A stretch of DNA of 64,000 nucleotides from a virus (IMGVR_UViG_3300027708_000033:32001-96000); one strand, 5' to 3'. Shown: positions 53,223 to 63,992, counted from the stretch's first letter. Translations and numbers: made by a program. The notes: generated by a model from the sequence alone, not told the origin.

Positions 53223-53237
53223 TAACCGCAAAAGATT

Positions 53238-53270
53238 TTGCTCACTCGAAAGAGTGGGCAATTTCTTTTT
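53238..53270 (+). terminator. Intrinsic terminator
   Basis: TTGCTCACTC-GAAA-GAGTGGGCAA then TTTCTTTTT. Confidence 0.85.
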
Positions 53271-53530
53271 GTCCGCAAACTCGAAGAATTTTTTTGTCCG
53301 CAAACGTAAAGAATTTTTTTAGTCCGCAAACTTGACGAAGCCTCTCGAGCTCGTGTCCGCAAGAAGAAGAAAAAAGATCGGTTCGCGTCTCGAAGAAAAA
53401 AAGTTAATCGAAGAATTCATCGAACTCATCGAACTCATCTACCGCACCGAATCGACCTCTCGAACGAGACCGCGTTGACTCGACTTGAGTCCGCAATCAA
53501 AAAGCCGCAAAAAGACTAGAAAAAATTCTT

Positions 53531-53639
53531 TATAACAAAATGGTAACATTGCGCGAAATTGGCAAAAACGCTTCAGTTTCGTGATAGAGTCATTACATCA
53601 AGCAAATGCTTGAAAACGACGAAACGAAAAGAGACAATT
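53531..53639 (+). promoter_or_regulatory. Early cassette P2
   Basis: GCTTCAG..TGaTAGAGT; TCAAGCA-AA-TGCTTGA; AAACGACGAAA. Confidence 0.75.
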
Positions 53640-53885
53640 ATGAATACACAAAAATGGGCACTTCTAAAAGAATCAGACGGCAACCGCGGAGCAAACGGTA
53701 AGAAGAAGGTTTACGAAATTCTTGTTGAAGGTAACAAGGTTACTTTCAGTTGGGGAATGGCAGAAAAGACTTCACGTCAGAGTTCAGTAATCATCGCCGC
53801 AAACGAGAACGCAGCAATTTGGACCGCGAAGCAGAAAATGTGGGACAAGGTTTCAACTGGTTACGTGGTTGCTTACGCGGTGTAA
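53640..53885 (+). CDS. Stand-alone WGR-like domain protein
   Basis: KKVYEI.V.G..V...WG......Q.....A...A....K..GY; start moved to ATG 53640. Confidence 0.7.
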   Translation: MNTQKWALLKESDGNRGANGKKKVYEILVEGNKVTFSWGMAEKTSRQSSVIIAANENAAIWTAKQKMWDKVSTGYVVAYAV

Positions 53886-53899
53886 GTAATCTCACGAAA

Positions 53900-53931
53900 G
53901 TCGCTCACGGAAACGTGGGCGATTTTCTTTT
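53900..53931 (+). terminator. Intrinsic terminator
   Basis: GTCGCTCACG-GAAA-CGTGGGCGAT then TTTCTTTT. Confidence 0.85.
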
Positions 53932-54089
53932 GTCCGAATGGATGCAAACTTTCGCTTCAATCTTCGCCGCGTCTACGCGCCTTCAGACGGCGAGATGATG
54001 CGCGATGGAGATTCGAGTCCGCAAGCAAAAACTCGTGAACTTCACCGCGAAAAAAGATTCAAAAAGATTTTGAAAAAGATTTGCGAATG

Positions 54090-54164
54090 TAGTGTACTTT
54101 GCTTCAATTACCCGCTATAATCGAATTATCAAGCACGCGCTTGAAAACGACGAAGGAGATTACG
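54090..54164 (+). promoter_or_regulatory. Early cassette P3
   Basis: GTGTAC..TTGCTTCAA..TATAAT (54116-54121); TCAAGC-ACGC-GCTTGA; AAACGACGAAGGAG. Confidence 0.8.
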
Positions 54165-54458
54165 ATGACTGAAAACGAAATTAAATGCCACGGTTTTGGT
54201 GCGCACAATCAGTACGAAATGAACATGAAAAGAAACTACAAAAACAACTTTGAAACTTGGTGCGAACATTGCGCGAAGGCGATGGACGAGACCGCAGGTT
54301 GGTTAGTTCGCTGGAATTGGAAAACTGATTCTCTAGTTCCATTCGAAAACGAGCAAGCAGACACCCAAATAAAAAGACTCGGAAACGAATGTGTAAAGAG
54401 GTTTCTAAGTTCGAAGGAAGAATACGAGTTCTTCGCGAAGCGAGCCGGCGAAGTTTAA
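54165..54458 (+). CDS. Hypothetical early protein, possible zinc finger
   Basis: WCEHC and GNEC; start at ATG 54165 after GGAG. Confidence 0.75.
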   Translation: MTENEIKCHGFGAHNQYEMNMKRNYKNNFETWCEHCAKAMDETAGWLVRWNWKTDSLVPFENEQADTQIKRLGNECVKRFLSSKEEYEFFAKRAGEV

Positions 54459-54477
54459 AGTCGACCGCAAAAGGATT

Positions 54478-54506
54478 TCGCCTGCGAAAGCGGGCGATTT
54501 CTTTTT
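54478..54506 (+). terminator. Intrinsic terminator
   Basis: TCGCCTGC-GAAA-GCGGGCGA then TTTCTTTTT. Confidence 0.85.
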
Positions 54507-54559
54507 ATCCGGAAAGAGATTTTTCGGTAACAGAACCGTTATAAATAATTTTAGCGAAA

Positions 54560-54634
54560 TGGTGTATTTGCTTCAGTTTTTGCTGTATAATTGAACTATC
54601 AAGAAAACTTGATAAAACGACGAAGGAGATTCAC
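54560..54634 (+). promoter_or_regulatory. Early cassette P4
   Basis: GTGTA-TTTGCTTCAG..TATAAT (54586-54591); TATCAAG-AAAA-CTTGATA; AAACGACGAAGGAG. Confidence 0.8.
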
Positions 54635-61880: not shown

Positions 61881-62103
61881 TTTGACTCCTTGTTGTTTGT
61901 TCTTCTTGTTTGATTAATTTGCCGCCCAGTGTGAGCAGCCAGATGGTGCAGATGATTACGAGCATCACTGCCCAAATCGTTAGGTAAGCTGCCCTACCAA
62001 TAAAGCCAAGAAAGCCTTCGCGATTTGCTAGTTCGGTCGCTGCGAACATTCCTTCCTTGGCTTTACGGTAGCCGCGTTCAAAAAGCGACTTGCGCTTAGT
62101 CAC
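61873..62103 (-). CDS. Small membrane protein
   Basis: TM segment AAYLTIWAVMLVIICTIWLLTL; GTG start near 62103 assumed. Confidence 0.6.
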   Translation of the reverse strand: MTKRKSLFERGYRKAKEGMFAATELANREGFLGFIGRAAYLTIWAVMLVIICTIWLLTLGGKLIKQEEQTTRSQND

Positions 62104-62323
62104 GCTTAGCACTGCGGCGTTCGATATAGCGTTCAATGTCTGGACCAAAAGTCCAGCCTAGAACCCATACCGTGCCGATGGTTGGAAGATTTTGTAGAAA
62201 GTCTACGAATCGTCCTTCTGCACCGAACGCAATCAGGATTATCCAGATAAACAGATAGCCTGCGTAAGAGAGCGGTACAGTGATGATGCTTACAAAGAAT
62301 CGTCTCAAAGTGTACTTGTCCAT
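62096..62323 (-). CDS. Small membrane protein
   Basis: Two hydrophobic segments; first gene behind P8. Confidence 0.75.
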   Translation of the reverse strand: MDKYTLRRFFVSIITVPLSYAGYLFIWIILIAFGAEGRFVDFLQNLPTIGTVWVLGWTFGPDIERYIERRSAKRD

Positions 62324-62395
62324 ATTTCCTCTTTTCGTCGTTACTAGGTTTTCCTAGTAATTCAATTATACTTCATTCTGCTTCAGAAGTACATC
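62324..62395 (-). promoter_or_regulatory. Early cassette P8 (spacer motif inverted)
   Basis: TGTACT-17nt(CTGAAGCAG)-TATAAT; TTACTAGG-AAAA-CCTAGTAA; CGACGAAAAGAGG. Confidence 0.8.
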
Positions 62396-62418
62396 GTTTT
62401 TTGAAACTTTTTGTAAGT

Positions 62419-62649
62419 TTAGTCGTTCTCGACTTCAATTACTTTTCCTGCCGCATCCTCGAGAACGTAGTATTCGGTGTCGATACCGCTGTTCTTCTCG
62501 AAGTACTCAGGGAGGTCTTCACCGTTGATGTCGCCTTCGGTGAGTTCCTTGAAGAGCCGCATGGCTTCTTCATCGGATGAGGCTTCGAATGAAGCCTTCC
62601 ACGATTCGACCACGTCGAACCTGAAGTTGTAGATTTTCTTTTCACTCAT
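62419..62649 (-). CDS. Small acidic hypothetical protein
   Basis: RBS GAGGAG; EA.S.EEA motif. Confidence 0.75.
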   Translation of the reverse strand: MSEKKIYNFRFDVVESWKASFEASSDEEAMRLFKELTEGDINGEDLPEYFEKNSGIDTEYYVLEDAAGKVIEVEND

Positions 62650-62651
62650 GT

Positions 62652-62960
62652 CTACTCCTCGTCTTCTTCGTAGTCTTCGTTCTCGACTTCTTCGGTGGTT
62701 TCAGTGAATACACAAGAAGAGTACTTCTTGTTCAATCGCTGAACTTCTTCCCACATGTACTCTTCAAGTTCTTCCTGGTCGCTGAAGTAGTGACGCTCTT
62801 TCCAGTCGCTGCTTGAGATGACTCCCTTGAAGTTCATCGTGAAGTACCAATCGTAGAACTCGTCGATTTGACCTGATGCTTCCAGCTTCCAGTCGCCGAA
62901 GTCGATTGTCGCCGTGGTGATTGTGATGTTCTTCATCTTGTTGTTTTCTTTATCAGTCAT
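62652..62960 (-). CDS. Acidic hypothetical early protein
   Basis: First gene behind P9; RBS AAGGAG. Confidence 0.75.
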   Translation of the reverse strand: MTDKENNKMKNITITTATIDFGDWKLEASGQIDEFYDWYFTMNFKGVISSSDWKERHYFSDQEELEEYMWEEVQRLNKKYSSCVFTETTEEVENEDYEEDEE

Positions 62961-63035
62961 ACTGACTCCTTCATTTTGTCGTTTCTGGATTTCTCCATGG
63001 TTCTATTATACAGCGTACTGAAGCAAATGTACACT
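62961..63035 (-). promoter_or_regulatory. Early cassette P9
   Basis: TGTACA-17nt(TTTGCTTCAG)-TATAAT; TGGA-GAAA-TCCA; AAACGACAAAA. Confidence 0.85.
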
Positions 63036-63060
63036 CATTTTGATAACTTTTTGGAAAGAT

Positions 63061-63405
63061 TTAATTTATTTTTGACATTTCCGCATAAGTCTTTAACTGT
63101 TGAATCTGCACTTCACTGATTCCCCGCGTGTCTCCACTGGAGTCGATGCCTCCCGTAAATACAACTGGACCAACGATGAAGTCTGTACCTCCGCAATACT
63201 TCACGAAGATAGATGTTGCAGCCTGATTGAATGGAAGTTTGGTCATCTTGCCATCTTCATTCGTCCACATGATGAGGTCTGGTGCTAGTCTGATTGGTTC
63301 AATGTAACCTCCAACCGCAGTCTGCATGGTTTTTAGTTGGTTGTCAACGAAAGGTATTACTTGTACCGCACCTTCAGGTGACATGATTGCCGCGAACTGT
63401 GACAT
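63061..63405 (-). CDS. DUF3846-like protein
   Basis: L..MQ.AVGGYIE..NEDGK...LP.N..A..DFIVGPVVFTG. Confidence 0.8.
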   Translation of the reverse strand: MSQFAAIMSPEGAVQVIPFVDNQLKTMQTAVGGYIEPIRLAPDLIMWTNEDGKMTKLPFNQAATSIFVKYCGGTDFIVGPVVFTGGIDSSGDTRGISEVQIQQLKTYAEMSKIN

Positions 63406-63415
63406 GGTTCTCTCC

Positions 63416-63766
63416 TTATTTCTTTTTCTTGTATTTGTTGCTGATGATTTCAGCAGCTTTTGGACGGTTCTCGTCTGAAGTTTCTTCTATCTCTACCCAG
63501 TCGCTGTCGTTCCAGCTAGAGGTTTCGATGATAACTAACCCATCTGCCATGCCGTAGTTTCCATCATCAGAGAAGTAATGGACGATTGGTTGTGTGAACA
63601 CGCGAGCTTCTTCAGTGTGCTCATCGATGGTGATTAGTTCCGCACCTTCTTCAGGTTCTACGAAGCCAGTTGCGATGAAGATTTCATCGGCACCGTTTTC
63701 TGCATCGCTAATGAAAGCCTCTGGACAGATTTCCTGGATTTTTGCTAGTAGTTCTTCTTTAGTCAT
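63416..63766 (-). CDS. Acidic hypothetical protein
   Basis: Start moved to MTKEELL (63766), RBS GAGGA. Confidence 0.7.
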   Translation of the reverse strand: MTKEELLAKIQEICPEAFISDAENGADEIFIATGFVEPEEGAELITIDEHTEEARVFTQPIVHYFSDDGNYGMADGLVIIETSSWNDSDWVEIEETSDENRPKAAEIISNKYKKKK

Positions 63767-63992
63767 TTGATACTTCCTCTGCTGTATACTCGCCAATAAA
63801 CTTGACGACGTCTGTTGACGATAGGTTTTCTGGATAGTTGGTGAACTTAGACAGGGCGATGCTCCAATCGCCTGCTATGATGCCGCACGCGTGCTCAGCA
63901 GTTTCTGCTGACACCTGGTAGCGGTAGGTGATTTTTATCGGTGGATTTCCGTTCACCGAGATTTGCCGTGAGACCGCAAACTTTTTGCTCAC
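63759..63992 (-). CDS. Hypothetical protein
   Basis: ORF in operon orientation overlapping the next start. Confidence 0.6.
   Translation of the reverse strand: MSKKFAVSRQISVNGNPPIKITYRYQVSAETAEHACGIIAGDWSIALSKFTNYPENLSSTDVVKFIGEYTAEEVSND

Follow-up and report, generated by a model that had tools for sequence, protein, structure and literature searches.

The genome of a lake phage of actinobacteria, IMGVR_UViG_3300027708_000033, contains a long domain in which the pentamer CCGCA crowds one DNA strand while its reverse complement, TGCGG, is scarce. The window analyzed here, 64,000 nucleotides (nt), comprises bases 32001-96000 of this 127,237-bp virus contig (G000), which IMG/VR classes as linear and for which CheckV estimates a completeness of 76%; positions are those of the window unless called genome positions. 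The CCGCA-rich, TGCGG-poor domain occupies 53226..64000 on the + strand and opens, at a sharp edge, with an intergenic array of the word (53226..53509, +) located between two minus-strand genes, those for the portal protein (49383..51071) and for the large terminase, terL (54938..56353; Pfam Terminase_6N and Terminase_6C). The portal gene, 60% identical to the portal region of the cultured Microbacterium phage A3Wally, stands just outside the domain and starts a word-poor structural block; terL lies inside the domain and carries 4 CCGCA and 1 TGCGG on +. Four small + strand cassettes also sit between these genes, each composed of a promoter-like site, a shared leader, an open reading frame (ORF) and a hairpin terminator. 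Gene calls are crude, made with a purpose-made scorer for the contig and a longest-ORF rule for its relatives.

An exact count finds 49 CCGCA and 5 TGCGG on + between 53226 and 63978, 8 and 0 in the intergenic array, and 18 and 29 in positions 1-53225. The hand tally of an initial annotation (49 CCGCA, eight of them in the array, and 15-20 in the preceding 53 kb) is borne out, except that it had put TGCGG at about 4; its expectation of about 7 of each word is matched by 300 dinucleotide-preserving shuffles of 53226-63978, which yield 7.4±2.7 CCGCA (maximum 17) and 7.5±2.7 TGCGG. At the rate seen outside the domain, the same interval would have 5.0 CCGCA (Poisson P = 2e-31), and 46 copies are seen where other minus-gene blocks predict 4.9; overall, the word is enriched 8-10 fold in the domain. 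Its total on both strands of the whole window is ordinary (101 copies vs 93.1±8.6 in shuffles), and the abnormality is one of placement: one strand, one domain, and depletion elsewhere. An unbiased scan of all 5-mers of the 127-kb contig ranks TGCGG first for local clustering (log10 P = -28.6). Followed past the window end, as the annotation had advised, the domain extends from genome 85,226 to ~100,500, spanning ~15 kb with a CCGCA:TGCGG ratio of 60:9; outside these limits the word is depleted, so the enrichment is not uniform genome-wide. The low-side edge is abrupt and the high side fades: per 3 kb, counted toward the sharp edge on the flipped sequence, copies number 4, 8, 12, 10, 12, 17 and then 2. 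All four bases occur on the 5' and on the 3' side of the word, which has no conserved flanks. The annotation's label of an early region for the whole stretch is loose because the stretch holds, besides terL, cell-wall hydrolase genes. Two minus-strand cell-wall genes inside the domain encode a PG_binding_1 protein (56458-56970) and an SLT lytic transglycosylase (56976-57623); they are followed on the same strand by genes for a DUF6011-like protein (58028..58633), homologous to a gene within the A3Wally terminal repeat, and an NlpC/P60 peptidase (60829..61485), the latter also inside the domain.

The word is largely written into genes. Among the 60 domain copies, 44 are coding and 16 intergenic, and 41 of the 44 read TGCGG on the sense strand; in minus genes, this sense-strand TGCGG is split into codons as NNT-GCG-GNN (31 copies), TGC-GGN (9) or NTG-CGG (1). 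Such a distribution invites an explanation that needs no reader, in which avoidance of other words (e.g., TGCA) together with early-gene codon habits would push alanine codons into TGCGG. Synonymous-codon shuffles within genes yield 19.9±3.2 coding copies (z = 7.6 for the 44 seen), and shuffles that keep the proteins and every dinucleotide yield 24.3±2.9 (z = 6.7). Because protein-preserving shuffles already give 20-24 copies, not ~6, composition accounts for about half of the coding excess, but only for about half. The initial annotation held that codon bias cannot explain the word and proposed codon- and dinucleotide-preserving shuffles as a control; its claim is too strong for the share that composition supplies and stands for the rest, which survives both kinds of shuffling.

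What remains of the coding excess is a context-specific synonymous choice (T|GCG|G). Where alanine follows a T-ending codon and precedes a G-starting codon, GCG is used in 31 of 49 cases in the domain, vs 1/37 in neighboring early genes, 17/328 in structural genes and 8/141 in the remainder; outside this context, the domain (51/204) and neighboring early genes (54/193) use GCG equally. Relatives were compared with this phage through 14 other whole contigs of the family, a non-random set in which G004-G008 were chosen for their other words, and their codon choice was scored in the 12 kb up to the terL end vs 35 kb of structural genes. GCG is favored at T|Ala|G in the pre-terL blocks of DSL-LC01 (26/42 vs 10/101), G009 (15/25 vs 9/167), G001 (10/24 vs 11/211), G010 (13/23 vs 12/97) and G011 (14/36 vs 14/115), and G002, G003, G004, G005 and G007 choose GCC in the same context, which produces TGCCG. 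The idea of a by-product can draw further on the rarity of GCA as the T|Ala|G codon before terL in many relatives, on a mild depletion of TGCA in the domain (59 copies in 15.3 kb) and on the strong strand-polar 5-mers common in high-G+C actinophages. It is nonetheless scarcely credible, given the z of 6.7-7.6 left after shuffling, the equal use of GCG away from T|Ala|G, the intergenic copies and iterons, the conservation of sites beyond background and a polarity that is maintained across inverted genes.

That polarity is best seen in the 2-kb zone of the inverted cassettes. Cassette 1 (95 amino acids; 52935..53222, +) runs opposite to terL, has a homologue in G011 and is followed, after its stop codon, by ACCGCAAA and a terminator. 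Cassettes 2 (81 amino acids; 53640..53885, +), 3 (97 amino acids; 54165..54458, +) and 4 (86 amino acids; 54635..54895, +) have one CCGCA each in their ORFs; ACCGCAAA and a terminator follow cassettes 3 and 4, which have homologues in G011 with 81% and 82% identity, respectively. None of the four cassettes has a match in PHROGs. The three ACCGCAAA sites, at 53225, 54464 and 54898, each fall between stop codon and terminator, as the annotation had noticed. The CCGCA:TGCGG ratio in this zone is 14:0, made up of 3 copies in ORFs, 3 as ACCGCAAA and 8 in the intergenic array; tandem and module copies share descent and hence are not independent counts. An independent replication comes from homologues of cassette 2, which occur with 50-56% identity and in either orientation in G001, G009, G010, G011 and DSL-LC01: where they are inverted, the terL-strand word still prevails (7:0 in G009, 4:0 in G011). 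In another relative, L076, TGCGG remains on the terL strand inside inverted cassettes. The word is thus present, as originally proposed, in intergenic DNA (16/60), in + genes (3 cassette ORFs) and in - genes including terL (4 copies), and its polarity follows the genome, not gene direction. Contigs assembled from sequencing runs X3 and X4 depart from the window sequence at 52842, 52926 and 53431, and the loose ends of both at 52842 have the same consensus; co-occurring strains apparently differ in the cassette zone.

These orientations bear directly on a role in transcription or in RNA. The core of the elemental pause signal is TGYG, and TGCGG could act as a pause-like element on the non-template strand, or as a site for a protein or RNase in long terL-sense transcripts, which would also run antisense through the inverted cassettes. 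The sense-strand reading of 41 of 44 coding copies agrees with such a role, as does the co-orientation of all early genes with TGCGG in DSL-LC01 and A3Wally. Still, we regard it as improbable: inverted cassettes carry the word antisense in three genomes, eight copies stand in the intergenic iteron array, and, ahead of terL, it is CCGCA that L037 and L038 show on the sense strand. Relatives, moreover, use TGCCG or GCTCGC, which makes a universal property of RNA polymerase unlikely, since this would not change between them. The CCGCA on the terL strand of L037, L038 and L050 (21:2 in 8.4 kb of L037) represents either a reversed domain or an ordinary sense-strand excess of CCGCA.

The word and its domain recur in the family, for which IMG/VR holds at least 427 relatives; of 80 relative loci, the 31 of at least 15 kb were examined, and loci of at least 8 kb in a further selection. 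L004, with a TerL protein 94% identical to that of this phage and DNA 78% identical, keeps 28 of 46 aligned sites intact, vs a fraction of 0.376 for other four-G/C 5-mers (P = 0.0012), and L008 keeps 20 of 34; L004 and L008 are probably one lineage, and therefore their two conservation tests are not independent. Most domain genes are without a homologue in the 14 other contigs, and persistence of the word despite this turnover of gene content counts for a selected signal. In 8 of the 14, a 6-kb interval before or around terL contains 15-35 TGCGG and at most 3 CCGCA; the ratio is 41:10 in DSL-LC01, and many IMG/VR relatives share with it the same domain upstream of terL. A DNA search matches DSL-LC01 to this stretch across terL only; TGCGG is its most domain-specific 5-mer (96 copies vs 9.3 expected from the structural block; 24 vs 25.3 for the reverse complement), its density shows the same rise to the edge, and its domain ends just before the portal gene. 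The parts of the DSL-LC01 paper available to us (PMC10611076) give no termini and do not mention the word.

The gene order is common to all 15 contigs: a terS-like gene (genome 108,690-109,718 in this phage), 21-38 kb of small genes, terL and portal. The word is not: in the same arm, TGCCG is abundant in G004 (23:2), G005 (25:1) and G002 (24:1), and GCTCGC in G007 (28:0) and G008 (25:0). We split the contigs into 8 strong and 6 weak TGCGG genomes, a division set by the analyst (G010, this grouping aside, later gave the coding signal), and found no protein of this phage that is present in at least 6 of the 8 and at most 1 of the 6; in this low-power test, the word has no clean correlate among the core proteins. 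The word array is real and polar, it is under selection and conserved, and it does not depend on transcription direction. Shuffles, T|GCG|G choice, intergenic copies, inverted-cassette polarity and site conservation agree with the annotation's proposal of an oriented DNA signal overlaid on coding sequence, and some direction-sensing machine probably reads CCGCA. A partial literature search returned no published account of such a word array.

The array at the sharp edge is itself repetitive. Tandem Repeats Finder detects there 2.9 copies of a 25-bp unit, TTTTTGTCCGCAAACTTGAAGAATT (53266..53339, +), iterons whose spacers are A+T-rich, and in L065 GTGCGGGTGTTT recurs every 12 nt ahead of a conserved element. 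The place of the CCGCA iterons between terL and portal is taken by other arrays, long and degenerate: in L076 (12.7-13.4 kb) by 17-nt GATTTCTGAAGTCTTTC units, a GATTTC array, and in G003 (~51.1-51.6 kb) by CAGGCT-type runs. In G001 and A3Wally, TGCGG also occupies promoter spacers right after TTGAC(A/T). Helically spaced iterons (25 bp x 2.9 here, 12 nt in L065) and sites just past a promoter element would suit the core box of a phage DNA-binding regulator or silencer, stoperator- or iteron-like, that coats or blocks the early arm; uniform orientation would then reflect head-to-tail cooperative binding or a one-way block to RNA polymerase, and module-specific, fast-evolving regulators would predict both the switching of words between close relatives and several words per arm. 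Stoperators of Cluster A mycobacteriophages, bound by a known repressor (L5 gp71), are ~13 bp long and follow transcription direction. Like CCGCA, they are asymmetric, occur in many copies of one orientation through actinophage gene blocks and lie partly within genes; unlike them, CCGCA is a bare pentamer, without the conserved flanks that would make up a ~13-bp site, and its orientation is not tied to transcription (14:0, 7:0, 4:0). A specific site would need more than five bases, most copies (44 of 60) fall within genes, and no phage protein co-varies with the word in the low-power test above, so that we consider a regulator and its head-to-tail or road-block geometry a possible, if doubtful, answer.

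A pentamer ending in GCA, placed on one strand beside iterons with A+T-rich spacers, could also be a primase site on one template strand. The array would then hold an origin, and the sites would be required when replication from it copies the strand of the terminal repeat that is displaced or lagging. Known phage primase sites measure 3-5 nt, and a word that differs between relatives would fit. The primase of this phage, however, is not of the T7 gp4 type but a fusion of Prim-Pol and D5-type helicase; its similarity to the enzymes of relatives does not follow word type (54-79% identity among TGCGG genomes vs 61-71% among the rest); and nothing accounts for a need for sites in 15 kb only. A primase is accordingly a highly improbable reader. 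This Prim-Pol/D5_N primase-helicase, an AAA_5 ATPase next to a VWA (CoxE-like) protein, and an N6_N4 DNA methylase are encoded at genome 19418-22042, 97134-100091 and 123312-124472. We rejected a methyltransferase as reader of the word: the N6_N4 methylase has a homologue in G011 alone, 1 of 14 other genomes.

The arm in which the word lies has a counterpart in cultured phages. A homologue of the terS-like gene is gene 1 in five Microbacterium phages and is annotated as the small terminase in Cece. The block that starts with this gene in A3Wally is an exact direct terminal repeat of 15,503 bp (100% identity), and from duplication of the same gene set over ~17-20 kb we infer a terminal repeat in four further Microbacterium phages. 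Between 2 and 8 kb of the A3Wally repeat, TGCGG occurs 38 times and CCGCA 5 times, in all reading frames and in promoter spacers; the first 2.45 kb contain 29 AACCG and the last 1.5 kb 19 GGGGG. These surroundings bring to mind a signal for packaging or ejection, used by phages whose terminal repeats are long: either (i) a translocating terminase would read co-oriented words as it nears the terminal cut, much as cosQ is recognized one way only, or (ii) the words would pace DNA entry, as does the injection stop of T5. The domain adjoins terL, and its limit on the portal side of that gene is a repeat array, where relatives have arrays of their own (e.g., the GATTTC array of L076); the first gene of the arm is homologous to the annotated small terminase of Cece; and in Microbacterium phages it is the direct terminal repeat, with AACCG filling the first 2.5 kb and GGGGG the last 1.5 kb. 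T5 offers a likeness in its first-step-transfer DNA, a terminal repeat, which the 15.5-20-kb repeats of small early genes in cultured relatives and the edge repeat arrays resemble. The differences are that the terminal repeat is known from the cultured relatives, not from this contig, and that restriction sites are not purged: 4-bp palindromes between genome 85.2 and 110.3 kb number 1255 vs 1179 expected, so this hallmark of a first-entering arm is missing. We know of no precedent for a 15-kb pentamer field read by a terminase or tail, nor of any report of a dispersed polar pentamer in T5. In either version, packaging or ejection seems an unlikely function.

Other words mark the ends of these repeats. 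In all frames of the sense strand, AACCG fills the arm at its terS end (30:4, 34:6 and 24:5 in L111, L115 and L116, over the first 5 kb of the repeats; 45:3 at 45-51 kb of G001), and the terminase is perhaps a candidate for binding there. Five Microbacterium phages (L112, L121-L124) have 11-21 GGGGG vs 1-2 CCCCC in their last 1.5 kb, where the terminal repeat finishes on the right, and their last 60 nt are largely alike and include one xCCGCAx.

We somewhat favor a DNA-tracking motor as the reader of CCGCA because the word is a bare pentamer, dense, co-oriented despite transcription direction, located inside genes and graded to a sharp edge. We posit that CCGCA, or TGCGG on the terL-sense strand, would be a selected, direction-dependent signal over the terL-proximal ~15 kb of the ~25-kb early arm, which the terS-like gene bounds on one side and the array separating terL from portal on the other, and whose homologue in cultured relatives is the long direct terminal repeat. 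The sharp edge would be a DNA end at some stage, and the motor would track one DNA strand from, or toward, this terL-side edge. The signal could be Chi-like, a reading by analogy to which we give a probability of roughly 0.3, and control an end-entering helicase-nuclease, which may be AdnAB/RecBCD of the host or an enzyme of the phage; the numerous co-oriented copies, most closely packed at the edge, might switch the enzyme from degrading the arm to sparing or recombining it. A Chi-like signal is preferred because the closest documented case is that of the terminal, oriented Chi clusters of phages LLS, MD8 and P1: as far as the consulted sections of PMC12315714 go, Chi is oriented and terminally clustered in LLS (20 vs 3) and MD8 (32 vs 0) and near the terminal repeats of P1. 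As in those phages, the word is short, G/C-rich and asymmetric; nearly all copies occupy one strand and gather near one edge or terminal repeat, they lie within genes, and the word varies with host or lineage. Over-representation and strand bias, which characterize Chi, are evident here (60:9; 49 vs 7.4±2.7), and the swapping of words among relatives would parallel the difference of Chi between hosts. In contrast, Chi of these phages is 8 nt long at ~0.5 per kb, whereas CCGCA is 5 nt long at ~4 per kb, and the present arm has several words, recombination genes of its own and hosts among the Actinobacteria, for which no Chi is known. KOPS (FtsK orienting polar sequences) and SRS (SpoIIIE recognition sequences) are likewise polar words over genes, read by a DNA translocase; they differ in being 8-mers, chromosome-wide and polarized toward dif, while CCGCA is confined to a 15-kb phage domain. 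More broadly, and still tentatively, the pentamers (TGCGG, with TGCCG or GCTCGC in close relatives) may constitute a lineage-specific direction code, which an end-processing or translocating motor would read on the arm that serves a large, widespread family of actinobacterial phages as terminal repeat.

Several observations weigh against this Chi-like reading. First, the number and choice of words are awkward. Early arms carry several polar words (AACCG, ACACGC, GGCGTG, and TGCGG together with TGCCG), and TGCGG and TGCCG coexist in G002, G003, G006 and G012, which does not agree with one word per enzyme or host. Phages with TGCGG span 41-61% G+C, and close relatives differ in word; such a span implies very different hosts, and a host-set word therefore fits poorly. 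Second, in Microbacterium phages the TGCGG zone is inside the repeat, 7-13 kb from its right end, and the word bias in the last 2 kb of the five phages is unconvincing (8/3, 7/8, 8/2, 6/5, 8/4). Three of three unrelated phages of the A3Wally host, Armstrong, BurtonThePup and Floof, have no end cluster; their top strands contain few TGCGG (36:117, 3:34 and 19:197), evenly spread. Third, assembled contigs, rather than reads, aligned to the window give no listed pile-up of starts or ends, and three of them bridge the sharp edge: X1 record 1 (44500-59561), X3 record 15 (50358-55288) and X4 record 19 (52508-53688). Runs X1-X3 may be the source sample of the contig; depths of X3 contigs climb from 5.3-7.0 to the left of 49.4 kb, through 8.7 where the edge is crossed, to 11-11.8 in the domain, a rise that a collapsed repeat might produce, although these depths are not copy numbers and no conclusion is based on them. 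Fourth, the fixed spacing of the iterons, 25 nt here and 12 nt in L065, looks like that of protein-binding arrays. Fifth, synteny with DSL-LC01 indicates that this phage has RecA-like, helicase and nuclease genes, and the Chi-rich lambdoid phages are, in the passages of PMC12315714 at hand, those without such genes of their own. Finally, AdnAB has no known Chi and is argued to be Chi-independent in the portion of PMC5314763 available.

CCGCA is not the only polar word of this genome. On + in the CCGCA domain, GATTT:AAATC is 75:1, and this second domain is wider, from window 52000 to genome ~110 kb; AAATC occurs on + once in genome 84-110 kb, that is, in the whole arm from the terS-like gene to terL, and DSL-LC01 has 1 sense-strand GATTT over 24-46 kb. 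Unlike that of CCGCA, GATTT polarity follows gene direction in L076, and it might be due to mRNA avoidance or evasion of Type III restriction. The EcoP15I sites of T7, which evade Type III restriction, resemble CCGCA as an asymmetric 5-6-nt word in nearly all one orientation; the kind suits the 75:1 of GATTT better, since CCGCA is enriched 8-10 times. For CCGCA itself, we rejected such evasion, which predicts no enrichment, and 9 copies of the opposite orientation remain. GATC is nearly absent from the contig (10 copies in 127 kb), other 4-bp palindromes being common, and TCGA and CGCG are ~2.7x enriched in the early arm. Armstrong, BurtonThePup and Floof (L125-L127) have extreme polar 5-mers genome-wide, such as CCGAG (285:2) and CTTCG (171:2) in Floof and CCAAG (118:0) in Armstrong; by a rough hand estimate, CTCGG is rarer on the Floof sense strand than codon usage alone gives. 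A search of genome contigs for the NrdJ-like protein, aimed at the host, returned a single match, on a 3.4-kb contig of an archaeal metagenome-assembled genome.

Polar words laid over genes, as exemplified by Chi and KOPS, are among the few DNA signals that give motors their direction of travel, and we know of no such word in Actinobacteria or their phages. The domain described here is a clean case, enriched 8-10 fold, written into proteins by synonymous choice, polar through inverted genes and swapped in close relatives. If the word is the box of a regulator, its layout would still be unusual. If the Chi-like reading is true and the motor is host-encoded, CCGCA would be the first Chi-type sequence for Actinobacteria. 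Because the family has cultured members with mapped terminal repeats of 15-20 kb, such as A3Wally on Microbacterium foliorum, the reader of this word can be sought at the bench.

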